Source: Candidatus Latescibacterota bacterium (GTDB taxonomy: Bacteria > Latescibacterota > UBA2968). Taken from it: a DNA stretch of 20,822 nt. A program made the position numbers and the translations under genes. Positions 135-15,896 of this stretch are shown here, one piece after another (position 1 is the first letter of the stretch; every line of letters begins with the position of its first letter). Where the stretch lies: positions 1 to 20,822 of the forward strand of contig JAYODI010000014.1 in assembly GCA_038279365.1 (NCBI GenBank). Reading direction: 5' to 3'. The notes under the pieces were generated by a model. That model searched no databases, had not been told where the DNA came from, and saw nothing but the letters and a program-made list of their open reading frames with translations.

Positions 135-962
135 ATGAATATTCAAGATTTATTGTTGTCAGTGGTTGCCATTTTATATGCGCTTGGTGCAGTGGGATAC
201 GCCCTCAACTTTTATCAAGCCAATGATCTTTGGCGACGTGTGGGCATTTGGAGTTTGAGTGGTGGGTGGGTTGTGCATTGTGGCTTGGTGTTGTTTATGT
301 CTGCTGAAGCGGGCACTGTGCCACTCACACGAGAAATCTTGCCATCCTTATGTGCGTGGCTTGATGTTGTGGTCTATTTGTATTTGGAGTGGACCACAAA
401 AGACCGCTCTTTGGGTGCACTGATTGTGCCCATTGTATTGGTTTTGCATTTGTTGACCTTGTCCAACATGATTGGTGTTGCAGATCCAATTAGCGTTAGT
501 CACAATGCCGGTTGGTTTCGCGCTCATGTTTTGGCCTATGTTTTGGCCTATGCAGCTTTGGCCATTTCTTGTGTAAGTGCCATTATGTATGTGATGCTTT
601 TGGGGGAAATTCAGGCCAAACATCTTGGTTTTTTCTACAATCGTTTGCCTTCTTTGGATGTGCTCAACCAAATTAATGATAAGGCTGCAACTTTTGGATT
701 TGTGTTTTTAACATTGGGGTCTGTCACGAGTTCTATCTGGGCTTATCAAGAGTTGTATCGTCTTTGGGTTTGGAGTGATCCGGCCTTTTTACCCATTTTG
801 ATTTCATGGATTATATATGCCGGTCATCTCTATGCTCGTTATTTTGCTGGTTGGCAAGGCAAACGATCGGCCATGTTGTCTATTGCGGGTTTTGTGTTGG
901 TGATTTTTGCATTTCCTGTTATTGGAGTCCTTTTTTCTGGGCAACATCCCCTCGGCGGGTAA
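135..962 (+). CDS. ccsA: Cytochrome c biogenesis CcsA / HemX-like membrane protein
   Basis: 275 aa, multiple hydrophobic helices; WFRAH, LPSLDVL, SIWAY...W-W-DP (WWD-like) and GWQGKR motifs of the CcsA/HemX family; AAGG RBS; first gene of the hem cluster. Confidence 0.8.
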   Translation: MNIQDLLLSVVAILYALGAVGYALNFYQANDLWRRVGIWSLSGGWVVHCGLVLFMSAEAGTVPLTREILPSLCAWLDVVVYLYLEWTTKDRSLGALIVPIVLVLHLLTLSNMIGVADPISVSHNAGWFRAHVLAYVLAYAALAISCVSAIMYVMLLGEIQAKHLGFFYNRLPSLDVLNQINDKAATFGFVFLTLGSVTSSIWAYQELYRLWVWSDPAFLPILISWIIYAGHLYARYFAGWQGKRSAMLSIAGFVLVIFAFPVIGVLFSGQHPLGG

Positions 963-978
963 GTTGGAAGGTTTTACA

Positions 979-1614
979 ATGGGCTTTCCTGTGGTGCTCA
1001 ATATTGATGGGCGTTTGTGTTGTGTGGTGGGGGCAGGCAAGGTCGCCGAGCGCAAAGTGCAAAGTGTGTTAAAGGCCGGTGCACGGGTTCGTGTTGTGGG
1101 CCTTGATCCAACACCCCAATTGATGAAGTTGGCCCATGACAAACAAATTGAGTGCTACCAACGCCGATTTGTAGATGCCGATTTGACAGGGTGCTGGATG
1201 GTTTTTGCAGCAACTGATGACGACGAAGTCAATGCCCATGTTGGTGCGCTGGCGAATGAACAAGGTATTTTGTTTGGACATGCTGCTGGTGGGAGCAGTG
1301 ATTTTATGTTACCTGCTGTTTTGGATATTGGCGATTTGCAAATTGCTGTGTCCACAAATGGGGCGTCTCCGCTTTATGCGCGATGGGTGCGCGATTATTT
1401 ACAACAGCATCTTGTCGATGAGCATGCCGAAGTGTTGTCTGTTTTGAAATGGGCGAGAGAAAAACTTAAAAGTGATTTGCCTAACGATTCTGTCAAACGG
1501 CAAAAAATTTGGCGAACACTGATTTCCAAAGAGATGGTTGAAGCCGTTCAAGTCGGAAATGTGAACCAAGTTAAACAACGGATATCCGAATGCCTATCGT
1601 TGTCACAGGGTTAA
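979..1614 (+). CDS. Precorrin-2 dehydrogenase / sirohydrochlorin ferrochelatase (SirC/Met8/CysG N-terminal type)
   Basis: FPVVLNI...VVGAGKVAERK Rossmann motif, FAATDD, IAVSTNGASP; start moved to ATG 979 after GGAAGG. Confidence 0.88.
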   Translation: MGFPVVLNIDGRLCCVVGAGKVAERKVQSVLKAGARVRVVGLDPTPQLMKLAHDKQIECYQRRFVDADLTGCWMVFAATDDDEVNAHVGALANEQGILFGHAAGGSSDFMLPAVLDIGDLQIAVSTNGASPLYARWVRDYLQQHLVDEHAEVLSVLKWAREKLKSDLPNDSVKRQKIWRTLISKEMVEAVQVGNVNQVKQRISECLSLSQG

Positions 1615-2903
1615 GCCATCGCACGGCACCCGTTGCAATTCGCGACGGCGTGGCTGTTTTGCCAAAAGCCGTAGATGCGGTATTGCACGCATTGCAACAC
1701 ATACCTATTGTTTCTGAGTGTGCCTTGTTGTCTACATGTAACCGCACGGAAATCTATTTGGTGACCTCACAAGTAGACGAGGCCATTGACCAGGTTTGGG
1801 ATATTGTGGGAAAAGAAAGTGGTATTTCTCCAGAAGAATTACGTGCCCATCTGTTTGGGCATGTCGATGCCGAGGCTGTGAGACATCTTTTTGGTGTGGC
1901 GTCTGGATTGGATTCGATGGTGATGGGGGAGCCACAAATTGCGGGCCAAGTAAAAGATGCGGGTGCTTTTGCGCTTTCGGCTGGATCGAGTAAAACCATC
2001 TTGAATCGGTTGTTTCGTTCAGCAACAGAGGCTTCAAAGCGGGCACGCACCGAAACGGAAATTGGCACAGGTGCTGTTTCTGTGAGTTTTGCAGCGGTAG
2101 AGTTGGCTAAGAAAATTTTAGGTAACTTAGAGGGGCAGCGCGCCTTGGTGTTGGGGGCTGGCGAAATGAGTGAACTCACCGCACGGCATTTGATAGACAA
2201 TGGGGTAAAATCACTCACCGTGGCCAGCAGAACGCTTGAACGTGCAGAAGATTTGGCCGAAAGGATTCAAGGTCGGGCTATTGCTTGGGATGTGGCGATG
2301 GCGCATTTGGATCAGGCAGATGTGGTGATCAGTTCTACCAGTGCCGAGGTCTTTGTATTAGAGCGGGATGCCGTGGCGGCCGCTATGCAAAAGAGAAAAA
2401 ATAAGTCGATGTTTTTGATTGATATTGCCATGCCCCGCGATATAGACCCTGAGGCAGGCAAGCTCTACAATGTTTTTCTTTATGACTTAGACGATTTGGA
2501 ATCGGTGGTTGGAGCGAATTTAGAAAAACGCAAAATAGAAGCACAAAAAGTTGCGCATATCTTAGATGAAGAAGTACGGGCATTTGTGGCTTGGATTAAT
2601 TCTCTCGATGTGGTGCCAACCATTGTGGCATTGAGGCAACATTTTCAAGGGTTTCTCGAATCCGAATTGGAACATGCACGATTGGATGATTTAACAGAAG
2701 AACAACAAGCTCAAATTGCTTATTTGCTCAGGCGCTATATGAATAAGTTGTTGCACAAACCGGTTACACGCCTAAAAGAAGCTGCCGAAGCCGAAGATGG
2801 AATGGGATATGTCGAGGCATTGTCCTATTTGTTTGAATTGTCATCATCAGCCCAGCAAAAAACCGCGCAACATACCAATGAGGAAATACCGGATGTCCGA
2901 TAA
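1590..2903 (+). CDS. hemA: Glutamyl-tRNA reductase
   Basis: GLSHRTAP, LSTCNRTEIY, SGLDSMVMGEPQI, GAGEM and DIAMPRDID motifs; overlaps the upstream gene by 25 nt. Confidence 0.97.
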   Translation: MPIVVTGLSHRTAPVAIRDGVAVLPKAVDAVLHALQHIPIVSECALLSTCNRTEIYLVTSQVDEAIDQVWDIVGKESGISPEELRAHLFGHVDAEAVRHLFGVASGLDSMVMGEPQIAGQVKDAGAFALSAGSSKTILNRLFRSATEASKRARTETEIGTGAVSVSFAAVELAKKILGNLEGQRALVLGAGEMSELTARHLIDNGVKSLTVASRTLERAEDLAERIQGRAIAWDVAMAHLDQADVVISSTSAEVFVLERDAVAAAMQKRKNKSMFLIDIAMPRDIDPEAGKLYNVFLYDLDDLESVVGANLEKRKIEAQKVAHILDEEVRAFVAWINSLDVVPTIVALRQHFQGFLESELEHARLDDLTEEQQAQIAYLLRRYMNKLLHKPVTRLKEAAEAEDGMGYVEALSYLFELSSSAQQKTAQHTNEEIPDVR

Positions 2904-3819
2904 GCTGACAATAGGTTCTCGGGGAAGCAAGCTGGCTTTGTGGCAAGCAAATTGGGCAAAAGACCTATTGTGTGAGCACTTTCCCAATTTGCAAGTTGAG
3001 ATTCAAGTGATTCGCACCCAGGGAGATCGCATGGCAGAAGTGCCGCTTTCACAAATGGGTGGAAAAGAAGTTTGGACCAAAGAAATAGAGCAAGCTTTAT
3101 TAGATCATCAAATTGATTTGGCCGTTCACAGCCTCAAAGACCTCCCAACCCTATTGCCATCAGGGTTGATGTTGGGGGCAGTGAGTAAGCGTGAAGATGT
3201 TCGCGATGCATTGGTGAGTTTGGAGGGGAAGCGTTTTGCAAATTTGCCTCAAAATGCGCGTGTTGCAACAAGCAGCTTAAGACGGCAAGCACAACTGCTC
3301 AATGCGCGACCTGATTTAAAAATAGAGAGCATTCGTGGCAATGTGGATACGCGGTTGCGCAAGTTGGAAGAAGAACCTTTTGATGCGATCATTTTGGCTT
3401 CTGCTGGGTTGATTCGTTTGGGGCTTGGTGCGCGAATTACGGAGTTTTTAGACCCCACTTTGTGTGTGCCAGCACCAGGGCAAGCCGCGTTGGGAATAGA
3501 AACCCGGCAACATGATGATCGCGTTGCAATGTATGTGGCTGTATTAAATGATTCAGATGCCTTTAGAGATGTGATTGCTGAGCGTGAAATGCTTCGATCA
3601 TTAGAAGGTGGGTGTCGTGTGCCCATTGGGGCGTGGGCTCGGTTGGCCTCTGGACATTTTGTATTAACGGGGGTGGTGGCGACCCCTAATGGCCTGCGGG
3701 TGATCAAAGAAACAATAGAAGGCCAAATCAACGACCCGCTAGCTTTGGGGCGAGAAATGGCCAACAAATTGCGCCAACAAGGCGCGGCAGAAATTCTCGC
3801 AGATTTAGAAAATGTCTGA
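2893..3819 (+). CDS. hemC: Hydroxymethylbilane synthase (porphobilinogen deaminase)
   Basis: IGSRGSKLALWQ, AVHSLKDLPT, TSSLRR, IRGNVDTRL and LEGGC motifs; start moved to ATG 2893 after GAGGA. Confidence 0.97.
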   Translation: MSDKLTIGSRGSKLALWQANWAKDLLCEHFPNLQVEIQVIRTQGDRMAEVPLSQMGGKEVWTKEIEQALLDHQIDLAVHSLKDLPTLLPSGLMLGAVSKREDVRDALVSLEGKRFANLPQNARVATSSLRRQAQLLNARPDLKIESIRGNVDTRLRKLEEEPFDAIILASAGLIRLGLGARITEFLDPTLCVPAPGQAALGIETRQHDDRVAMYVAVLNDSDAFRDVIAEREMLRSLEGGCRVPIGAWARLASGHFVLTGVVATPNGLRVIKETIEGQINDPLALGREMANKLRQQGAAEILADLENV

Positions 3820-3820
3820 T

Positions 3821-3847
3821 TGCCGCTTTTAAAGCGGCATTTTATTT
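3821..3847 (+). terminator. Hairpin plus U-tract between hemC and cobA-hemD (internal terminator or attenuator)
   Basis: TGCCGCTTT-T-AAAGCGGCA palindrome (3821-3839) followed by TTTTATTT. Confidence 0.55.
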
Positions 3848-3857
3848 GAAGGTGAAG

Positions 3858-5360
3858 ATGCAAATAGGCTGTGTTTATTTGGTGGGTGCTGGTCCTGGTG
3901 ATCCAGAGCTATTGACACTAAAGGGGCTTCGGTTGCTTCAGCAGGCCGATGTAATTTTATATGATGGCTTGGCAAACCCATCGTTGTTGTTACATGCAAA
4001 AGAAACCTGTGAGGTGGTGAATGTTGAAAAACGCCCAGGCTTTCATCGCGTGCAACAAGGCGATATTAATAAGCTCATGGTAGAATATGCTGGTGCAGGA
4101 AAAAGTGTGGTGCGTTTAAAAGGGGGCGACCCGATTGTGTTTGGGCGTGGTGGGGAAGAGGCAGAAGTGCTTCGGCAAGAAGGGATTCCATTTGAGATTG
4201 TGCCTGGTATTTCAAGTGCAATTGCAGCACCCGCTTATGCCGGAATTCCCGTTACGCATCGGGGGGTATCCACGCATTTTACTGTGGTCACTGGCACCAC
4301 AACCGCATTGGATGGTCAGCACGAAGTCAATTGGGAATTGCTTGCCCTAGCGGGGGGCACATTGTTGATCCTAATGGGCACACGCAACCGGGCCGAAATA
4401 GCCCAGCGATTGATAAGTGGGGGGCGAGCACCAGAAACACCCGTTGCCATTGTATATCGTGGAACGACGCCATTTCAAAAGACCACGCGCATCCAATTGA
4501 AGGATTTGGCAGAAACTCCGGTTGAAAATCCGGCGGTTATTGTTGTTGGTCCTGTTGCGGGAATCGATTTTTCTTGGTTTGAGTCTCGTCCGCTTTGGGG
4601 AAAAACCATTGCCGTGACACGTGCTCGCACCCAAGCCAGTGGTTTGGTGAGCCTGTTGTCTGTTATGGGAGCCGATGTGATTGAGGTGCCCACCATAGAG
4701 GTGGTGCCCTGCGATCATTGGAACCTTGTTGATGAAGCCATTTCGCGTTTAAATCAAACCGACTGGGTGGTGTTTACGAGCACCAATGGCGTTGATTATT
4801 TTTTTGAACGCATTTTTGCTTTGAATTTGGACGTGAGAGTTTTCGGACAGGTTAAGGTGGCCAGTATTGGCAAAGCAACCAGTGATCGCATACGCAATTA
4901 TCATCTCCACGTTGATTTGGAGCCGACCACGAACATCTCAGAAGGGCTTTTGGAGGCATTTCAAAAACAAGTGGAGTTAGAGGGGGTGCGTATTTTGTTT
5001 CCCAAAGCCGAGTCTGCACGGGCCATTTTGCCCAATGGTTTGCGCAATTTTGGTGCAGTGGTAGAGGAAGTTGTGGTTTACAAAACGGTGCAACCAAATG
5101 CGCTTCCTGAGCGTTTTAAGCAAGTAGTGGCAGAAAAAAAACTTGATTTAATCACATTTACAAGTTCGTCAACCGTGACAAATTTTGTGGATATGTTGGA
5201 TAATTTTGAATTGCTCAAAGACTTTCAGGCTGCATGTATTGGCCCCATTACGGGGAAAACGGCAACTGATTATGGCATCAAAATAGTCGTGCAACCCGAA
5301 GCAGATGATATTTCGGTAGATGGTTTGGTCAATGAAATCGTTACTTTTTTTGCCAAATAG
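3858..5360 (+). CDS. cobA: Fused uroporphyrinogen-III C-methyltransferase / uroporphyrinogen-III synthase (CobA-HemD)
   Basis: N-half VYLVGAGPGDPELLT, RLKGGDP, VPGISS, GIPVTHRG; C-half IAVTRA, FTSTNGV, FTSSSTV, CIGPIT (HemD); ATG 3858 after GAAGGTG. Confidence 0.95.
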   Translation: MQIGCVYLVGAGPGDPELLTLKGLRLLQQADVILYDGLANPSLLLHAKETCEVVNVEKRPGFHRVQQGDINKLMVEYAGAGKSVVRLKGGDPIVFGRGGEEAEVLRQEGIPFEIVPGISSAIAAPAYAGIPVTHRGVSTHFTVVTGTTTALDGQHEVNWELLALAGGTLLILMGTRNRAEIAQRLISGGRAPETPVAIVYRGTTPFQKTTRIQLKDLAETPVENPAVIVVGPVAGIDFSWFESRPLWGKTIAVTRARTQASGLVSLLSVMGADVIEVPTIEVVPCDHWNLVDEAISRLNQTDWVVFTSTNGVDYFFERIFALNLDVRVFGQVKVASIGKATSDRIRNYHLHVDLEPTTNISEGLLEAFQKQVELEGVRILFPKAESARAILPNGLRNFGAVVEEVVVYKTVQPNALPERFKQVVAEKKLDLITFTSSSTVTNFVDMLDNFELLKDFQAACIGPITGKTATDYGIKIVVQPEADDISVDGLVNEIVTFFAK

Positions 5361-5434: not shown

Positions 5435-5533
5435 TTAAATTAGTTAAACAAATATTTGAATTTCACGCTGGTCTGGTCGATAATTACTTAATATCGCATC
5501 TTCGTGATTCCGTCTTTTGACAGGGGGCATGGC

Positions 5534-6340
5534 ATGAAAAAGTTCATTATGACAGCATGTGTGGGGGTTGCATTGGCAGGTAGTGCCATTGCTGGTCCGT
5601 TGACACAGGGGTTGGAAATTAACGGGGGCGAAAACAGTTTTGCCGCCCTTACTTTAAAACGCGCTCAAAATGTAAAAGAAGAGTCTGGTGAGATTAAGTT
5701 GCGCGTTTCTCTAAATGAAGCACAACAACTAAAAGGTTATGGTTTTGTGCTCCAGTTTGACCCAACCAAATACGAATTTGTATCGGCCCAAGAAGTAGAT
5801 GGTAACTTGCTTAATACAGGCACAGAGCAATCGACCTTGTTTTTGGCTTCCGATAAAACACCTGGCCAAGTTGCTGTGGGTTCCATGAAAGTGGATGGTG
5901 AAGGTGCCAATGGAGCTGGTGATTTGGTAGAATTCACTTTTCGAACACAAAGCCCACCCTTGTCCACTGATTTTCAAATTTTAGATGGTGTGCTCGTTGA
6001 TCTCACGGGCAGCATTGATGCCATCAACAACATCGAAATTGGCAACTTAAAGCCTGTTCCAACAGATTATTCTTTGGAACAAAATTTACCCAACCCTTTT
6101 AACCCATCAACGACCATTAAATATCAATTGCCAAACTCGGGTGAAGCCACCTTGGTCATTTACAATTTACTCGGTCAACAAGTGCGCACTTTGCTCAAAG
6201 AAACGATGGAAGCAGGTTACCACTCAGTTGTTTGGGACGGCAAAGATGAATTGGGCAAACAAGTGGCCAGTGGTGTTTATATTTATCGTTTGCAATCAGG
6301 TGACTTTTCAACAGCAAAACGTATGATGTTGTTGAAGTAG
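5534..6340 (+). CDS. Secreted protein: signal peptide, cohesin-like domain, C-terminal FlgD Ig-like / T9SS-type sorting domain
   Basis: MKKFIMTACVGVALAGSAIA signal peptide; LKGYGFVLQFDPTKYEFVS and GDLVEFTF cohesin-like strands; QNLPNPFNPSTTI...IYNLLGQQVRTL...WDGKD...VASGVYIYRL C-terminal domain; ATG 5534 after AGGGGG. Confidence 0.82.
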   Translation: MKKFIMTACVGVALAGSAIAGPLTQGLEINGGENSFAALTLKRAQNVKEESGEIKLRVSLNEAQQLKGYGFVLQFDPTKYEFVSAQEVDGNLLNTGTEQSTLFLASDKTPGQVAVGSMKVDGEGANGAGDLVEFTFRTQSPPLSTDFQILDGVLVDLTGSIDAINNIEIGNLKPVPTDYSLEQNLPNPFNPSTTIKYQLPNSGEATLVIYNLLGQQVRTLLKETMEAGYHSVVWDGKDELGKQVASGVYIYRLQSGDFSTAKRMMLLK

Positions 6341-8961: not shown

Positions 8962-9981
8962 ATGGCTTTTTCTTTTTCTCGTATGTTGTCGAACGATATT
9001 GGTATCGATCTTGGCACGGCCAATACACTTGTCTATGTGAAAGGGCAAGGGATTGTTGTTAATGAACCTTCCATTGTGGCTTTAGAAAAAAAGACCCGAA
9101 AACCTTTGGCTATTGGGGCCCAAGCCAAGGAGATGTTGGGGCGTGAAAATCCCGACATAGAAGTGGTACGTCCTTTGCGCGATGGTGTGATTGCAGATTT
9201 TGATGTCACCGAAGAGATGTTGCGGTTTTTTATTAAAAAAGTACAAAAAAATAAACTTTTGGTTCGGCCACGTATTGTGATATGTGTTCCTTCAGGAGTC
9301 ACGGCTGTAGAAATGCGTGCCGTTCGAGAATCTGCCGAACGCGCAGGGGCACGAGAAGTGTATCTGATTAAAGAACCGATGGCTGCTGCCATTGGCATTG
9401 GTCTGCCCGTAGAAGAAGCTATTGGTTCAATGGTGATTGATATTGGTGGTGGCACAACCGAAATTGCCGTTATCGCATTGTCGGGCATCGTTACGGCTCG
9501 ATCCATCAAAACGGCGGGTGATGAACTAACCGAGGCCATTGTGCAATTTATGAAGCGCAAACACAACCTCTTGGTAGGGCAACGTACTGCCGAAAAGATT
9601 AAGTGTGCCATTGGTTCTGCTGGTGCATTAGATGAAGAGTTGCAACACACGTGTCGTGGCTTGGAATTGGTTCAGTCTATACCCAAAACCATTATTGTTG
9701 ATTCAACCGAAATTGCAGAGGCGTTGGCAGAATCGGTCAGTTCCATTATTGACGCAGTGCGTCAAACGCTTGAACAAACGCCACCTGAATTGGCTGCTGA
9801 TATTTTGGATCGGGGTATCATTATGACGGGTGGTGGAGCACTGTTAAAAGGTTTGGATCGCAGATTGGTAGAAGAAACCAGTTTGCCCGTGATTGTTGCA
9901 GATGATCCGCTTACCTGTGTTGTGCGAGGTACGGGCAAAGTTTTGGAAGATATTGAAGGCTACCAAAAAGTTCTTGAATAG
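8962..9981 (+). CDS. mreB: Rod shape-determining protein MreB
   Basis: IGIDLGTANTLV, RPLRDGVIADF, EPMAAAIG, DIGGGTTE and TGGGALL motifs; GGAG RBS. Confidence 0.98.
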   Translation: MAFSFSRMLSNDIGIDLGTANTLVYVKGQGIVVNEPSIVALEKKTRKPLAIGAQAKEMLGRENPDIEVVRPLRDGVIADFDVTEEMLRFFIKKVQKNKLLVRPRIVICVPSGVTAVEMRAVRESAERAGAREVYLIKEPMAAAIGIGLPVEEAIGSMVIDIGGGTTEIAVIALSGIVTARSIKTAGDELTEAIVQFMKRKHNLLVGQRTAEKIKCAIGSAGALDEELQHTCRGLELVQSIPKTIIVDSTEIAEALAESVSSIIDAVRQTLEQTPPELAADILDRGIIMTGGGALLKGLDRRLVEETSLPVIVADDPLTCVVRGTGKVLEDIEGYQKVLE

Positions 9982-9987
9982 GATGAT

Positions 9988-10791
9988 ATGCAACGATTAT
10001 ATGCATTTTTAGGCGATCACAGGGGTTATGTAATATTGTCAGGAGCTGTGATCCTGTCTTTGGTGATGTTGTCTCTCGATATGGCCACGCGTTTACAATT
10101 TGCCCGGGGGGTGACCACTGGGCTGATGTCTGTTGGTCACCGTGTTTTCGCGTGGCCTTTAGATTTGGCAAGTTTGCGGTTTGAAAATGGGGTTTTGCGT
10201 GAGCAAAATCTAAGGTTATCCTTGGAGTTGTTGCGCTTGCGCGAGGCCCGTTTGGAAAATACGCGGCTGCGTCAATTGTTACAGTTTCGATCTGCTCAGG
10301 CCACAGCAGACAATTTTATTGCGGCCAAAGTTTTGGCGCGAAATCCTGCCCGTATTTTAAATACCATTTTGATAGATTTGGGCTCCCGCCAAGGGCTTAC
10401 ACCACGCATGCCCGTCGTCACTGCTGATGGGTTGGTGGGGCGTGTGTTGGAAGTGCATGAGCAAACATCTATTGTACAATTGCTTTTAGATCGCAATTGT
10501 CGGGTCAGTGCCGTTGTGCAACGGCAAAATCGAACCCAAGGCATTGTAACATGTGAAAATGGGGTTTTTTATCTACAAAATGTGGGAGTGCGCAGTGATA
10601 TTGAAGTTGGCGATGTGGTTGTGTCTTCGGGGTTGGGGGATGTGTTTCCAGGAGGGCTTTATATTGGACGTGTAGAGTCTTTGGGGGAGGCTGGGCAAGA
10701 GTTGTTTCGACAGGTAATTATAGCCCCTGGTGTTAACTTTTCCAATTTGGAAGAAGTGTTTGTTTTAAAAGATGTGGATTTGCAAAAATAA
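9988..10791 (+). CDS. mreC: Rod shape-determining protein MreC
   Basis: N-terminal TM helix, coiled coil ENTRLRQLL, IDLGSRQG, GLVGRV, GDVVVSSGLGDVFPGG and LEEVFV; directly follows mreB. Confidence 0.95.
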   Translation: MQRLYAFLGDHRGYVILSGAVILSLVMLSLDMATRLQFARGVTTGLMSVGHRVFAWPLDLASLRFENGVLREQNLRLSLELLRLREARLENTRLRQLLQFRSAQATADNFIAAKVLARNPARILNTILIDLGSRQGLTPRMPVVTADGLVGRVLEVHEQTSIVQLLLDRNCRVSAVVQRQNRTQGIVTCENGVFYLQNVGVRSDIEVGDVVVSSGLGDVFPGGLYIGRVESLGEAGQELFRQVIIAPGVNFSNLEEVFVLKDVDLQK

Positions 10792-10827
10792 AAGCCTTGG
10801 AATTGATCTTCCAAGGCTTTTATTTTT
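10784..10827. terminator. Bidirectional intrinsic terminator between convergent mreC and the flavin oxidoreductase
   Basis: Perfect 19-bp inverted repeat AAAAATAAAAGCCTTGGAA / TTCCAAGGCTTTTATTTTT with 6-nt loop. Confidence 0.88.
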
Positions 10828-10839
10828 ATGGCGTAAATG

Positions 10840-12306
10840 TTATAACTGAATATTCTTTTTGATCTCCCTGAGGGCAGCGCCTTCAGGGGATTTTTTATAG
10901 AAGGCATCTAAGGGGAAACATCCAGAAATCATGCCGTTTCGTGGGGCGGTGGTGCAATCGCTAAAGGTACGGCATATTTTACGTTTGATCATTTCACCAT
11001 TTTGAAGAACGTCAATGGGTAAGTCTGGATAAGACAGAACCATACGGCCCAAACCGATGAAGTCAACCATGTTGTCACCCACTAATTTTTGCCCCACGTG
11101 AGGCAAAAATTCTTGTAAGTAAGAATACGCAGAGCCAACAAAGAGAAAATCGGGATAGGCTTTTTTAATTTGGGCCACAATGGCCACTTGACGCGCCACG
11201 CCCACAAGCGGGTCTTCTGGGGGTTGGTAACCGTCTGATGGTGGATAATAGGCTGGGCGCTGAATGTGTGGGTTGTAGTAGGGGCTGCCCGCAGAGAGGT
11301 TTACCAGTGTAATGTTCATTTCACGAAGCAAGTCTAAAAACTTAAATGTTTCAGAAAGTTGCGCTTCTACTGGGTTGTCAAAATTGGTGCCAAAACCATA
11401 TTCGTAGGGCAAATGTTCTGTGAATTCTTCGGGGATGCCTGGTCCTAATTTTTTGCCTTCCGATTTGCTGGGGTCGGGTTTAAAGGGCACAAAATCAAAT
11501 GCACTTAAACGAACACCAATTTGAAGGTTTGGGTGTTTGGCACGAATGCCTTCGACAATTTCACGTAAAAAACGTGTGCGGTTTTCAAAAGAGCCACCAT
11601 AGAGGCCAGGGCGTGTAAATGCGCTTAAAAACTCATGACCCAAATACCCATGACAGTGTTTGATGTCTACAAAGTGATATCCCAAATCAGCAGCCATGTC
11701 AGCCGCTTTGTGATAATCTTCAATAAGGCCTTTAATGTCGTCATCCGAAAGCAAGTTGGCATCGGAAGTGATGCCAAACTTTCTGTCGAGAATCGGGTGG
11801 CGATAGACTGTTTGAGGTTCGAGTTTGGCTTTGTCAAATGGGCGACAAAAGCGACCCGAGTGTGTCAGTTGCAACCCAATATAAAGGTCGTCTGTGTTGC
11901 CCACATGTTCTTTGTGTGCAGCAATTAGTGTTTCTCTGAGTTTTCCAATGCCTGCTTTGGTATGTTCTGCGGCAATCAATTGATTGGGGTTTGCACGTCC
12001 TTCCGGACGCACGGCAACAGCTTCGCCACCCCAAATGAGCTTTGCACCGCTTAGACCAAAGTTATGCCATCGGCGAATGGTATATTCTGAAGGATTGCCA
12101 TCCGTTTCGGCATCCCAACCTTCCATGGGATGAATACAAAAGCGGTTGCCAATCGTAAATCCACCATATTCTGCTGTTTGTGCTAAGGGTGATTCGGGGG
12201 CTTTGAGAATTTCATCGTCACAGGGCAATTCGATATTTTGATCTTTCATGTGAGCCCGAAATTCATCAACTGTTTTGTGGTGGCCAACGCGAACATAATC
12301 TGCCAT
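10840..12306 (-). CDS. NADH:flavin oxidoreductase / Old Yellow Enzyme family protein
   Basis: NRFCIHPMEG, GLQLTHSGR, DIKHCHGYLGHEFLS, YGGSFENRTRF and IGLGR motifs; C-terminal CRTFSDC...C; AAGGAG RBS. Confidence 0.9.
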   Translation of the reverse strand: MADYVRVGHHKTVDEFRAHMKDQNIELPCDDEILKAPESPLAQTAEYGGFTIGNRFCIHPMEGWDAETDGNPSEYTIRRWHNFGLSGAKLIWGGEAVAVRPEGRANPNQLIAAEHTKAGIGKLRETLIAAHKEHVGNTDDLYIGLQLTHSGRFCRPFDKAKLEPQTVYRHPILDRKFGITSDANLLSDDDIKGLIEDYHKAADMAADLGYHFVDIKHCHGYLGHEFLSAFTRPGLYGGSFENRTRFLREIVEGIRAKHPNLQIGVRLSAFDFVPFKPDPSKSEGKKLGPGIPEEFTEHLPYEYGFGTNFDNPVEAQLSETFKFLDLLREMNITLVNLSAGSPYYNPHIQRPAYYPPSDGYQPPEDPLVGVARQVAIVAQIKKAYPDFLFVGSAYSYLQEFLPHVGQKLVGDNMVDFIGLGRMVLSYPDLPIDVLQNGEMIKRKICRTFSDCTTAPRNGMISGCFPLDAFYKKSPEGAALREIKKNIQL

Positions 12307-12358
12307 GGAAACTCCTTGGTCAATAATTCAATTGATTTCTTTTTGTTTGAGAGGTATG

Positions 12359-12387
12359 AATATAAATAAGGTTTGCAATACAAGCAA
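12359..12387 (-). promoter_or_regulatory. Putative sigma70 promoter for the flavin oxidoreductase
   Basis: Minus strand TTGCTT, 17-nt spacer, TATATT. Confidence 0.45.
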
Positions 12388-12408
12388 TTGTTCTAAAAGG
12401 AGAGCCCC

Positions 12409-13374
12409 ATGCAAAATGGCAGTGCAACCATCGTAGTACCAGGGGATGAACCCACGCAAATAGCAGGGTCACCCCATTTGGAAAAACTCAAACCCTATGG
12501 TCATGTGACGCTTTTTGATACCCGCCCAAGCTCCAAAGAGGAACAGGTTGAACGGGTTAGGGATGCCCATATCATCATGAATACGCGTGGGGCTGTGAAA
12601 TGGGGAGAGGCAGAGTTTGCCCAATTGCCCAACTTAAAGATGATAACCACGTGTTCTATTGGAACCGATATGATTGACCTGATATCGGCCAAAAAACATG
12701 GCATTGTGGTATGTAACCAACCAGGTCGCACGGCTCCTGTGGTGGCTGAGCACATGTTTGGGTTGATGTTTGCCATATCAAAGCGTGCCGCATATTCAAC
12801 GGCGCAAATGAAGGCCGGACAGTGGCCCAGAAAAGACAATGTGATGCTTCAGGGTAAAACCTTGGGTATTGTAGGAACGGGAAATATAGGTGCAGAAATG
12901 GCGCGTCTGGCGCGTGCCGTGGGCTTGGAAGTGATTGCTTGGACCTTTAACCCTTCATCAGCGCGTGCCAAAACGTTGGGGGTTCGTTTTGTTGAATTAG
13001 ACGAATTGCTACAAAAATCGGATGTGGTGAGCTTGCATGTGGCTTTGACAGATGATACACGTGGTATGATAGGTGCGCGTGAATTTGGCATGATGAAACC
13101 GGGTGCATTGTTTTTAAATGGTGCCAGAGGAGCAGTGGTCGATACACCCTCTTTGGTGGATGCGCTAAACAGCGGTCATTTGGGTGGGGCAGGGATAGAT
13201 GTTTTTGAAGAAGAACCTCCTCCGGCAGATTTGGCCCTTTTGCAATGTGAGCAAGTGGTACTCACCCCACATTGTGCAGATATGACGCCCGAAGGTGTGG
13301 ATTTGCTCAACAGTGGGGCAGTTGAGAACGTGATCGCATTTTTAGAAGGGCGTGTACAAAATACTGTTGGGTAG
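12409..13374 (+). CDS. D-isomer-specific 2-hydroxyacid dehydrogenase (SerA/glycerate dehydrogenase-like, no ACT domain)
   Basis: VAEH, GKTLGIVGTGNIG, SDVVSLH, NGARG, IDVFEEEP and LTPH motifs; AAGGAG RBS. Confidence 0.92.
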   Translation: MQNGSATIVVPGDEPTQIAGSPHLEKLKPYGHVTLFDTRPSSKEEQVERVRDAHIIMNTRGAVKWGEAEFAQLPNLKMITTCSIGTDMIDLISAKKHGIVVCNQPGRTAPVVAEHMFGLMFAISKRAAYSTAQMKAGQWPRKDNVMLQGKTLGIVGTGNIGAEMARLARAVGLEVIAWTFNPSSARAKTLGVRFVELDELLQKSDVVSLHVALTDDTRGMIGAREFGMMKPGALFLNGARGAVVDTPSLVDALNSGHLGGAGIDVFEEEPPPADLALLQCEQVVLTPHCADMTPEGVDLLNSGAVENVIAFLEGRVQNTVG

Positions 13375-13408
13375 GAAGTTTCTGCCCAAACAGGCAAAAA
13401 ATACACCA

Positions 13409-13447
13409 AAAGGGATTGGGGTTTGTAATGACCCAATCCCTTTATTT
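13409..13447 (+). terminator. Intrinsic terminator after the dehydrogenase
   Basis: AAAGGGATTGGG (13409-13420) / CCCAATCCCTTT (13432-13443) 12-bp stem followed by a T-rich tail. Confidence 0.75.
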
Positions 13448-13484
13448 GATTGATTTAAAAGGTTTTAGGGGCTTGGCTGGATGA

Positions 13485-13501
13485 TTGGCATAGCGTTCGC
13501 T
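13485..13501 (+). promoter_or_regulatory. Sigma54 (-24/-12) promoter for flgC
   Basis: TTGGCATAGCGTTCGCT gives exact GG-N10-GC spacing and resembles TGGCAC-N5-TTGC; lies 55 nt upstream of a flagellar gene. Confidence 0.7.
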
Positions 13502-13556
13502 AAAAGAAAAGGCATCGCGGAATCATTCACCCTGTTGAAGCAAGAGGATCATCCTT

Positions 13557-14108
13557 ATGCCCATTTCTGAAAGTGTTACACTGAGTCGATCTGCATCAGG
13601 TTATGCCCCTCAACGTTCGGGCATTTTTGATTCGCTCGATGTGAGCGCAACAGGTCTTTCGGCACAACGCCGAAAGCTTAATGCCATTGCCAGCAACATT
13701 GCTAATGTGGATACCACGCGCACCGAAGAAGGTGGCGCATACAAACGCAAACGCGTGATGATGATTGAGTCACCTCACATGGCGCGTTTTCGCAATATTT
13801 TACACGCCGAACAAAATAGGTTATCAAGCACCAATCAAAACCATATGCCAGGGGGGCCTGAACCTACAATTGATGAATTGTTAGGGTCGGGGGTCGAAAC
13901 AGCCGAAATTCGTGAAGAACCCATCGAACCACGTTTGGTTTATGACCCAGCCCACCCCGATGCACGCGAAGATGGATATGTCGTTTATCCCGATATTAAC
14001 GTGGTCACCGAAATGGTGGATATGATTTCTGCATCTCGCGCTTATGAAGCCAATGTAACGGCGATGAATGCCTCTAAAGAAATGATTACCAAAGCTCTTG
14101 AAATCTAA
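13557..14108 (+). CDS. flgC: Flagellar basal-body rod protein FlgC
   Basis: SATGLSAQRRKLNAIASNIANVDTTRT...YKRK, VYDPAHPDA..DGYV.YPDIN and EMVDMISASRAYEAN motifs; GAGGA RBS. Confidence 0.95.
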   Translation: MPISESVTLSRSASGYAPQRSGIFDSLDVSATGLSAQRRKLNAIASNIANVDTTRTEEGGAYKRKRVMMIESPHMARFRNILHAEQNRLSSTNQNHMPGGPEPTIDELLGSGVETAEIREEPIEPRLVYDPAHPDAREDGYVVYPDINVVTEMVDMISASRAYEANVTAMNASKEMITKALEI

Positions 14109-14115
14109 AAAAATA

Positions 14116-14255
14116 TAAACGCCTAAGCGTTTAAGGATCTACTATCCCTCCACGAATCTGACCTTGAATGCAGGATCGCTCTCCCCCTTTTGAATGATCC
14201 TGTCCTTCCTCTGAAGCGGTATTCGACACCCTCGTCGAATACCGCTTTATTTTTT
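14116..14255 (+). ncRNA. Candidate structured 3'-UTR element or sRNA with C/U-rich loops
   Basis: Serial hairpins at 14116-14133, about 14133-14165, 14171-14202 and 14214-14247, with exposed TCCCTCC, TCCCCCT, TCCTTCCTC and ACCCTC. Confidence 0.45.
14214..14255 (+). terminator. Intrinsic terminator of the flgC transcript
   Basis: Perfect 14-bp stem AAGCGGTATTCGAC / GTCGAATACCGCTT, loop ACCCTC, then TATTTTTT. Confidence 0.85.
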
Positions 14256-14280
14256 GTTATAATTTGGTATTCAAATGTTG

Positions 14281-14321
14281 AAAAAAAAAGCGTTGGTTTA
14301 ATAATTGACCAACGCTTTTTT
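14281..14321 (-). terminator. Intrinsic terminator of asd (also U-tailed on the plus strand)
   Basis: AAAAAAGCGTTGGT / ACCAACGCTTTTTT 14-bp inverted repeat; the A9 run gives a U-tail on the minus strand. Confidence 0.82.
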
Positions 14322-14373
14322 ATTTTCCTTCAGGAGATAGGCACAGGCACTTACGTTGCATATGCATTGCCCA

Positions 14374-15459
14374 TTATTTGGCTTGTAAATAGCCTTCTCT
14401 GTGGAGAAGTTCGGCCATTAAAACCGCGCCACCAGCCGCACCGCGCACAGTGTTGTGGCTTAGGGCTATGAAGCGATAATCAAACACATTGTCATCACGC
14501 AAACGCCCCAGTGAAATGCCCATGCCATTGCCTGCATCGCGGTCAAGGCGCGTTTGTGGGCGATTTTCTTCGGTGAGGTAGTTGAGAAACGGTTTTGGTG
14601 AGGAGGGTAAGCCCGTTCCTCTTGGATCACCTTGAAATGTCTGCCAGCAAGCAATAATTTCGTCTGCACTGGGTTTGGTTTCAAATGACACCGATACAGC
14701 AGCCAAATGACCGTCACTAACGGGCACACGAACACACTGCGCAGAAATGGCAGGTGTGCGTGCAGGTACAATTTCACCTTTGACCATTTTTCCCCAAATT
14801 TTGAGTGGTTCACGAATGCTTTTTTCTTCTTCACCACCAATAAATGGAATAACGTTGTCTGCCATTTCTGGATAAGTCTCAAATGTTTTTCCTGCACCAG
14901 AAAGTGCTTGGTAGGTGCATACCGACGCTTTTGTTGGAACAAACTCTGCCAAGGCATGAAAAGCGGGCACGTAGGGTTGGATGGAGCAGTTGGGTTTTAC
15001 AGCAATAAACCCATTTTTGGTACCGAGCCTTTTTCGTTGTGCAGGAATAATTTCGACGTGCTCTGGATTCACTTCGGGAATGAACATGGGCACATCAGGC
15101 GTCCAACGATGGGCCGAGTTGTTGGACACCACGGGGGTTTCTGCTAAGGCATAAGCATCTTCTAGGTCGCGAATGGCGTCTTTTTCCATATCCAATGCAC
15201 AACAAACAAAATCAACCTTGTTGGTGATGCTTTCAATGGCATCTACGCGTTGTACTTTGAGGTTGGCAATGTGTTCGGGAATGGCAACATCCTTTTGCGT
15301 CCAACGACCTTCCACCGCTTCTAGGAATGTTTTGCCTGCAGATCTGGGGCTTGCGGCCACAGAAACCACTTCGAAATAGGGGTGGTCTGCCAAGAGGGTA
15401 ATAAACCGTTGGCCCACCATACCAGTGGCGCCCAATACGCCCACTTTGAGTTTGGACAT
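14374..15459 (-). CDS. asd: Aspartate-semialdehyde dehydrogenase (asd_EA / clostridial-type)
   Basis: KVGVLGATGMVGQRF, VVSNNSAHR, KPNCS (catalytic Cys), QALSGAG, RVPVSDGH and SHNTVRGAAGG motifs; ATG 15459 after AAAGGA. Confidence 0.96.
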   Translation of the reverse strand: MSKLKVGVLGATGMVGQRFITLLADHPYFEVVSVAASPRSAGKTFLEAVEGRWTQKDVAIPEHIANLKVQRVDAIESITNKVDFVCCALDMEKDAIRDLEDAYALAETPVVSNNSAHRWTPDVPMFIPEVNPEHVEIIPAQRKRLGTKNGFIAVKPNCSIQPYVPAFHALAEFVPTKASVCTYQALSGAGKTFETYPEMADNVIPFIGGEEEKSIREPLKIWGKMVKGEIVPARTPAISAQCVRVPVSDGHLAAVSVSFETKPSADEIIACWQTFQGDPRGTGLPSSPKPFLNYLTEENRPQTRLDRDAGNGMGISLGRLRDDNVFDYRFIALSHNTVRGAAGGAVLMAELLHREGYLQAK

Positions 15460-15487
15460 GAAGCATCCTTTCTTCGGATCTGGGAAT

Positions 15488-15534
15488 AAAAAAACAGTCG
15501 GTTGCCTAATGTAAAGGTAGAGGCATGCCGACTG
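15488..15534 (-). terminator. Riboswitch-controlled transcription terminator in the asd leader
   Basis: mRNA reads CAGUCGGCAUGCCU - loop CUACCUUUACAUU - AGGCAACCGACUG - UUUUUUU. Confidence 0.85.
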
Positions 15535-15560
15535 CGAATATGTAACGCAGAGATCAACAC

Positions 15561-15740
15561 CCAAGAGAGCGCTCCACAGGTTTTTTGCCCTGTGACAGTT
15601 TTGCAGATATTATCTGACAGAACCAGACAATGCACGTTGCGGAACGTGTATTGACTTCGGCATCTTCACCCTTTCTACCAACCATCCAGATCCGCTTCTT
15701 GTGTTGGTTTACTATTGAGAAGATGCGCCTCTACCCTTGA
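15561..15740 (-). ncRNA. Lysine riboswitch (L-box) aptamer
   Basis: Minus strand has AGAGGCGC...AUAGUA...GAAAGG...GCCGAA...CUGG...AAUA...ACUGUC...GGAGCGCU in canonical order over about 180 nt; complementary kissing loops GCGGA/UCCGC; upstream of asd. Confidence 0.93.
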
Positions 15741-15748
15741 TGGCAAAA

Positions 15749-15839: not shown

Positions 15840-15896
15840 GTGTTTGTTCCAATAAGCAGGTAGAGACCAGGGTAAGATGGTGGAGGTTTTGTTTTT

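Follow-up and report, generated by a model that had tools for sequence, protein, structure and literature searches.

In Campylobacter jejuni, the small RNA FlmE (CJnc230) is described as being co-transcribed with the RpoN-dependent gene flgE and processed out of that transcript; it consists of two stem-loops around a single-stranded anti-Shine-Dalgarno (anti-SD) stretch and represses flgM and Cj1387c, acting at the ribosome-binding sites of both (PMC11187230). The cuckoo RNAs of Alphaproteobacteria (RSs0680/CcsR and relatives) are reported to comprise two to four hairpins, each carrying CCUCCUCCC in its loop, and the same source deals with RNAIII and the UCCC motif of Firmicutes small RNAs (PMC4615179). 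In E. coli, FliX, FlgO, MotR and UhpU are presented as small RNAs that are cut from the untranslated regions (UTRs) of flagellar mRNAs and tied to a flagellar sigma factor (PMC10578931). The icaR transcript of Staphylococcus aureus, according to the account in PMC3868564, has a C-rich anti-SD motif in a long 3'UTR, which acts in cis on the transcript's own Shine-Dalgarno (SD) sequence. Single-cell genomes of Latescibacteria are stated to encode flagella (PMC4454575), and among the papers listed in literature searches none linked Latescibacterota to small RNAs or to flgC.

The DNA analysed here is a stretch of 20,822 nucleotides from Candidatus Latescibacterota bacterium (GCA_038279365.1, contig JAYODI010000014.1, positions 1-20,822, forward strand), hereafter referred to as the window. 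The original prediction had placed a candidate RNA on the plus strand directly behind flgC, and this placement held. The core of the element, at 14145-14255 (+), is very probably a conserved plus-strand structured RNA within the flgC 3'UTR, and most likely belongs to a putative small regulatory RNA produced together with flgC. The best explanation of the whole, to which we assign a probability of about 0.5, is a sigma54-coupled RNA of the flgC 3'UTR whose anti-SD patches would block the translation of other mRNAs.

Genomic setting of flgC

The flgC ORF (13557-14108, +), in the 3'UTR of which the element lies, encodes 183 aa with a 22-residue N-terminal extension. Its product matches the Pfam families Flg_bb_rod and Flg_bbr_C and is FlgC by TIGR01395 (154.6 bits, cut-off 102.1, residues 24-183). 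The gene stands alone in the window: its upstream neighbour is a 2-hydroxyacid dehydrogenase gene (12409-13374, +), and downstream the aspartate-semialdehyde dehydrogenase gene asd (14374-15564, -) converges on it across a gap of 265 nt. Among the best 80 of 336 relatives kept from a FlgC protein scan of species-representative genomes, residues 1-183 were matched only in L001-L010 (92-71% identical), and from L011 onwards the match began at about residue 22.

A sigma54-type -24/-12 box, GGCAT-N5-TCGC, was located by pattern matching upstream of flgC (13487-13500, +). In the form GGCAY-N5-TYGC it stands unchanged in all 11 aligned loci, 55-60 nt ahead of the flgC ATG. As the pattern by itself is not rare (two matches in the window against 1.06 expected), the promoter call was based on the invariance of the box amid an otherwise diverged region. 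Of the sigma54 coupling proposed originally, this conservation is the part that stands, at the level of sequence; it points to sigma54-dependent transcription of flgC, with a start predicted about 11-12 nt past the box and a 5'UTR of about 45 nt. Another good box of this type, GGCACTTACGTTGC, occurs at 14346-14359 (+) and is directed, in antisense, into the asd 3' end; it falls within the chance expectation for the window and was not seen in L004 by eye.

The Pfam context of the relatives was derived from 37 of the 104 ORFs called in six loci, those nearest flgC. The order of the 2-hydroxyacid dehydrogenase gene and flgC is retained in L002 and L007-L010, and a convergent asd follows flgC in L004 and L007-L010. 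From this comparison of neighbour order, flgC and the RNA together appear as a stable island among housekeeping genes in the clade. Upstream of flgC in L004, the dehydrogenase is replaced by a FapA-domain (flagellar assembly protein A) gene of 812 aa (265-2703, +) and an 832-aa ORF without a Pfam match. In L002, a phage-type integrase gene (10794-11780, +) is found at the usual place of asd, about 100 nt past the terminator of the RNA, and a mobile element may have inserted there beside the 3' end of the RNA. Another reading frame lies immediately 3' of flgC in L011-L025, L028 and L029. In L017, the only such locus annotated, the genes are arranged as flgB-flgC-orf-SLT-fliE-fliF (9461-13365), which is the usual order, and orf encodes 105 aa of no family. 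The flgC of the clade stands alone, has a sigma54 box of its own and encodes an N-terminal extension of 22 residues that is conserved; the flgB-flgC-orf-SLT-fliE-fliF arrangement characterizes the more distant relatives.

Elsewhere in the window, a tetrapyrrole cluster (907-5360, +) contains a siroheme synthase N-domain gene, hemA, hemC and a fused methylase-HemD gene, with a cytochrome c assembly gene before it. A 278-aa ORF (5504-6340, +) shows a cohesin-like region, FlgD_ig and C-terminal matches of the Por_Secre_tail/CHU_C type, which suggests that its product is sorted by a type IX secretion system. A lysine riboswitch (RF00168, gathering score 30) was detected just upstream of asd both in the window (15559-15741, -; 99.4 bits) and in L004 (7642-7822, -; 101.8 bits); since the listed asd start (TTG, 15564) overlaps the aptamer, the true start is probably further in. 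These two riboswitches were the only matches in the Rfam gathering scan of the window, L001, L003, L004 and L006.

Architecture, conservation and strand of the element

The fold of 14100-14262 reached a minimum free energy (MFE) of -49.7 kcal/mol compared with -22.3 +/- 3.3 in shuffles (z = -8.44), and none of 200 shuffles was as good. The gap between flgC and asd contains, in order, a 7-bp hairpin, an unpaired C-rich stretch, the hairpin H2, a linker, a 16-pair terminator with its T-run and a separate bidirectional terminator. The first hairpin, TAAACGC-CTAA-GCGTTTA (14116-14133), is an insert particular to this lineage, placed after the stop codon and ahead of the conserved element, and is missing from the equivalent position in L001-L004 and L006-L010. 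Read on the minus strand, it forms a terminator-like site with the tail TATTTTTTTA, which may catch read-through coming from asd. The 5' motif TCCCTCCACGAATCTGACC (14145-14163, +) is conserved and mostly unpaired, the unpaired probability being 0.75 when the whole 3'UTR is folded and 0.94 when the RNA is taken to begin at 14141; it provides the first anti-SD-like patch and is a candidate seed or processing region. H2 (14170-14203, +) has the stem GCAGGATCG/TGATCCTGT and a loop with TCTCCCCC. Between H2 and the terminator hairpin H3 lies the single-stranded linker TCCTTCCTC (14203-14211, +; unpaired probability 0.66-0.70), an anti-SD-like stretch flanked by stem-loops. H3 (14212-14249, +) comprises 16 pairs, seven of them G-C, and a C-rich loop, ACCCTC, at 14228-14233. 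Together with the tail TTTTTTGTTA it has the layout of an intrinsic (Rho-independent) terminator, and its T-run (14250-14255, +) is the likely 3' end of both the flgC transcript and the RNA. The separate bidirectional terminator (14284-14321), composed of an A-run, a 15-pair stem and a T-run, serves asd and bounds the RNA from outside.

Four hairpins had been named in the original prediction. Three of them, namely TAAACGC/GCGTTTA, H2 and the terminator about 105 nt past the flgC stop codon (stem starting at 14212-14213, with its T-run tail), were recovered in both the MFE and the centroid folds. The weak pairing AAGG-a-TC/GACCTT (14133-14165) appeared in neither fold. The first two hairpins are not conserved: L001, L002 and L003, the closest relatives of the window, lack both 14116-14133 and the AAGGATC arm, which is the 5' arm of the weak pairing. 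The supposed duplication of hairpin modules was dropped, because its local alignment score of 16 was reached by 443 of 5000 mononucleotide shuffles. The exposed pyrimidine-rich segments are located as had been claimed: TCCCTCC (14145-14151), TCTCCCCC (14180-14187), the linker and the H3 loop have computed unpaired probabilities of 0.66-1.0. The base composition is skewed in the same direction, with 42 C against 24 G in the element of the window and 255 C, 167 T, 135 A and 35 G at the unpaired positions of ten MFE folds.

The element is conserved at one place in a clade of Latescibacterota. A related element is present directly behind flgC in 10 of the 11 sequences with full-length FlgC (the window, L001-L004 and L006-L010), starting 0-82 nt past the stop codon. 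It comprises a C/U-rich 5' motif that is left unpaired, then a hairpin whose loop is of the UCCCC type, a linker of the form YCCYUCC and, last, another hairpin, with a C-rich loop, behind which all 10 element-bearing sequences have a T-rich tail on the plus strand. The linker of the relatives reads TCCCTCC, TTCCTCCC, ACCTCCC or TTCCCCC, and their last-hairpin loops carry TTCTTCCTC, AATCCTTCCTC or AATCCCGT. Two conserved hairpins are found in the core of the window (H2 and H3) and three in L004 and L006-L010; in these latter loci the last hairpin is also the asd terminator, with an A-run before it and the end of asd just beyond. The 5' motif CYC..CCACGAR(N)CTG occurs in 8 of 11 loci, directly abuts the stop codon in L003, L006, L008 and L009, and is absent in L007 and L010. 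Its 11-nt part CCACGARNCTG was counted nine times in 1.21 Mb on both strands, eight of these at the place of the element. L005 retains a weak remnant at the orthologous place (10734-10809; 24.1 bits, E = 0.039). Parts of the element are dispensable, since L005 has largely lost it and L007 and L010 are without the 5' motif. Between flgC and the remnant, L005 has an ORF of 57 codons (10566-10739, +) that matches neither Pfam nor NCBIfam.

A full-length MAFFT alignment from stop codon to tail (A1) was structurally inconsistent, and a core alignment (A2) was therefore used. It contains 10 sequences, several of them close relatives, and nine distinct rows, since the cores of the window and L002 are identical. 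RNAalifold predicted two helices on A2 with 22 consensus pairs, 16 of which show compensatory changes. The structure is paired in 91.4% of cells, compared with 32-53% in slid controls, and the covariation score was 0.607 against 0.282 +/- 0.032 in shuffles (0 of 500 as high), a control that ignores relatedness. In H2, six of the nine pairs are changed on both sides and 90.1% of cells are paired; in H3, 10 of the 13 pairs are changed on both sides. Because terminator hairpins covary regardless of any further function, only H2 argues for a specific structure. Its stem occurs in at least four versions (GCAGGATC, GCAGGATT/AATTCTGC, CGGGAT/ATCCCG, CCGAATC/GATTCGG and CGGGTCG/CGACCCG), while the C-run of the loop is kept. 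The comparison of flgC 3' regions among relatives thus spoke for the original prediction, as the structured element is conserved, the stems covary and the C-rich unpaired motifs are retained.

The minus strand folds equally well or better in 9 of the 11 sequences by MFE. Since these energies fail to separate the strands, G-U cells were counted against A-C cells instead. In H2, 10 G-U cells, able to pair on the plus strand alone, stand against one A-C cell, a ratio that favours the plus strand. The near-even count in the last hairpin (G-U 5, A-C 4) fits its double role as asd terminator in L004 and L006-L010. Over 1410 nt, 30 C-rich pyrimidine runs were counted on the plus strand and one on the minus strand, the background being 4.3 per kb. 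In four loci the 5' motif begins at the stop codon itself, so that a promoter of the element's own would not fit in. An internal promoter in the 3' end of flgC was considered and set aside on inspection by eye, in which no conserved promoter hexamers were seen across the loci and synonymous sites varied freely. Given the abutting motif and the absence of visible conserved hexamers, co-transcription with flgC is the simplest reading.

A covariance model (R1) built from the core scored 58.6-82.9 bits on its ten training sequences. In 1,213,268 bases from 81 sources, it gave no other match above 25.4 bits, and the remaining weak matches were mostly reverse-strand terminator halves. With filters off, the best other match in the window reached 17.2 bits, and none of the repeat families listed for the window includes the element. 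The search for further copies, which had been suggested at the outset, therefore yielded none of a REP-like kind in the 1.21 Mb searched. An Rfam scan of 13300-14500 with E up to 10 returned nothing near a gathering score, the best match being TD-1 with 26.7 bits against 64.5, and no cuckoo-like and no Csr/Rsm family was among these matches. Two further candidates were rejected. The sole ORF touching the region (14190-14471, TTG, 93 aa) extends into asd in antisense and lacks an equivalent among the relatives, and the idea of a riboswitch or leader was rejected because the gene that follows, asd, is convergent.

Possible modes of action

According to the preferred reading, the RNA would be transcribed with flgC from the sigma54-type promoter, ending at the intrinsic terminator, and would either be cut off near the stop codon or be kept on the flgC mRNA. 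Its two to four exposed anti-SD-like patches would pair with G-rich ribosome-binding sites elsewhere and block translation. The outcome would be a coupling of rod-gene expression to the translation of other, plausibly flagellar, genes. The element has the anatomy of an anti-SD base-pairing RNA, with G-poor, C-rich accessible patches on stable hairpins and an intrinsic terminator with a U-tail. Action in trans by pairing with ribosome-binding sites is put at even odds. Duplex scans of the locus flanks (about 20 kb per genome) revealed no conserved trans target. Partner scans with the 5' motif gave the trivial antisense match and unrelated sites, such as one at the start of csiD, near position 15851 of the window (-25.9 kcal/mol), and RNAduplex runs of the whole element against start regions produced long unrealistic loops. 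Of the 19 longest-ORF starts in the window, which are unverified, only 10 have an SD-like motif ahead of them.

Among the other explanations, a cis-acting 3'UTR survives best, though it is unlikely. The C-rich patches would then pair with the SD region of flgC itself, AAGGA(C/T)C, leading to less translation or to decay. The element is always physically linked to flgC, the window has an 8-nt complement between ATGATCCT (14194-14201) and the ribosome-binding site AGGATCAT, and the icaR 3'UTR as described in PMC3868564 is a precedent; however, the 8-nt match is lost in L003, L004 and L006-L010. By a crude energy test in 10 loci, the C-rich segments paired with the flgC region -60..+21 no better than in dinucleotide shuffles (p 0.095-0.86, Fisher's combined 0.58). 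The flgC start region was likewise no outlier among ORF starts in such a crude test; over the 10 loci, the share of other ORFs with pairing as good or better ranged from 0.00 to 1.00.

A protein-titrating or docking RNA, analogous to CsrB/RsmZ, is improbable. CsrB and RsmZ are multi-motif sponges; here, the C-rich motifs would bind an RNA-binding protein and would not be pairing seeds. The presence of two to four motifs per RNA agrees with this explanation, as does the turnover of hairpins between subgroups with motif multiplicity and exposure kept. However, we know of no bacterial protein that reads UCCC/CUCC loops, and none is suggested as a partner by the flanks. Moreover, the same architecture is described for the base-pairing cuckoo RNAs (PMC4615179). 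Little weight is also given to a multivalent sponge, whose patches would titrate either a C-rich-loop-binding protein or G-rich leaders, with the output set by sigma54-driven rod-gene expression. Such a sponge, unlike a usual seed-pairing small RNA, would be a C-rich mirror image of the CsrB/RsmZ type, the number of UCCC/CUCC patches being kept despite hairpin turnover, and would belong to a phylum for which riboregulation has not been described.

It is doubtful that the element is a passive 3' end, which would stabilise the flgC mRNA against 3' exonucleases or provide rut-like Rho loading that backs up flgC/asd termination. The convergent genes, the terminators shared or bidirectional in L004 and L006-L010, and the excess of C over G throughout are consistent with such a role. 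A strong intrinsic terminator is, however, already there, the sequence-specific 11-nt motif is nearly exclusive to this place, and the H2 stem covaries with its loop motif retained, which is more than stabilisation or a rut site needs.

A minus-strand RNA with GGA-rich loops acting as a CsrA-type sponge, offered as the alternative in the original prediction, is very improbable. The complement necessarily has GGA clusters, and the window has a terminator-like hairpin with a T-run at 14133-14116, but this terminator is window-specific and missing in the relatives, and the G-U count of H2 opposes this strand. In L004 and L007 the asd stop codon abuts the shared terminator, so that no room is left for a minus-strand promoter; in the window, asd transcripts should stop at 14321-14284, and the Rfam matches included no Csr/Rsm family. 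A REP- or MITE-like dispersed repeat that lies behind flgC by chance would suit the intergenic palindromic structure between convergent genes, but it is very unlikely in view of the single copy per locus at an always orthologous place, the results of the R1 search in 1.21 Mb and in the window, and the absence of the element from the repeat families listed for the window.

Comparison with known systems

The finding is a prediction at sequence level. If true, the sigma54-coupled flgC 3'UTR RNA with trans-acting anti-SD patches would give the uncultured phylum Latescibacterota its first candidate riboregulator linked to the expression of flagellar genes. The FlmE logic, by which a 3' anti-SD RNA comes with a flagellar structural gene of the sigma54 class, would also gain a second, independent case, and a convergent origin of this wiring would be suggested. 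The covariance model offers a handle for finding metagenome members and for predicting targets.

Several of the known systems share single features with the element. The E. coli flagellar small RNAs FliX, FlgO, MotR and UhpU have Hfq-type seeds and are not multi-C-rich; unlike the present RNA, with its predicted sigma54 coupling, they are sigma28-dependent, and their sequences are unrelated. RsaE/RoxS represents the Firmicutes class of small RNAs with UCCC or C-rich motifs. Like RNAIII and RsaE/RoxS, the element exposes C-rich loop and linker motifs of the kind thought to pair with SD sequences, whereas the Firmicutes RNAs are independent genes with their own promoters and have no homology to it by Rfam. 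With the icaR 3'UTR it has the C-rich 3'UTR motifs in common, but specific complementarity to the start region of its own gene was not found for the element.

A kinship with cuckoo RNAs, which the original prediction had cited for comparison, could not be upheld. The modular row of hairpins, two in the core of the window and three in L004 and L006-L010, the anti-SD-like C-rich motifs and the variation of module number between relatives resemble the cuckoo RNAs as they are described in PMC4615179. However, the loop motif CCUCCUCCC has no match with up to one mismatch in 14109-14256, its three matches in the window lying elsewhere, and the element is on this ground not a cuckoo RNA. Unlike the cuckoo loops, its loops hold TCTCCCCC and ACCCTC, and half of its motifs are in single-stranded linkers. 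The taxon and the gene neighbourhood differ as well, and no cuckoo family was matched near any Rfam gathering score.

Like FlmE, the element has a single-stranded anti-SD-like stretch between stem-loops, here the linker between H2 and H3. As with FlmE, the element is located directly downstream of a flagellar structural gene with a sigma54 box, the dependence on sigma54 being predicted here from the conserved promoter; the host gene is the rod gene flgC instead of the hook gene flgE, and the phylum is another. FlmE has one CCUU seed, whereas the element has two to four longer C-rich patches, and with phyla so remote from each other sequence homology is not to be expected. On the best reading, the element would represent a new RNA family of a known kind, a sigma54-coupled flgC 3'UTR RNA that is a member of neither the FlmE nor the cuckoo group, functionally closest to Campylobacter FlmE and architecturally closest to the cuckoo RNAs.
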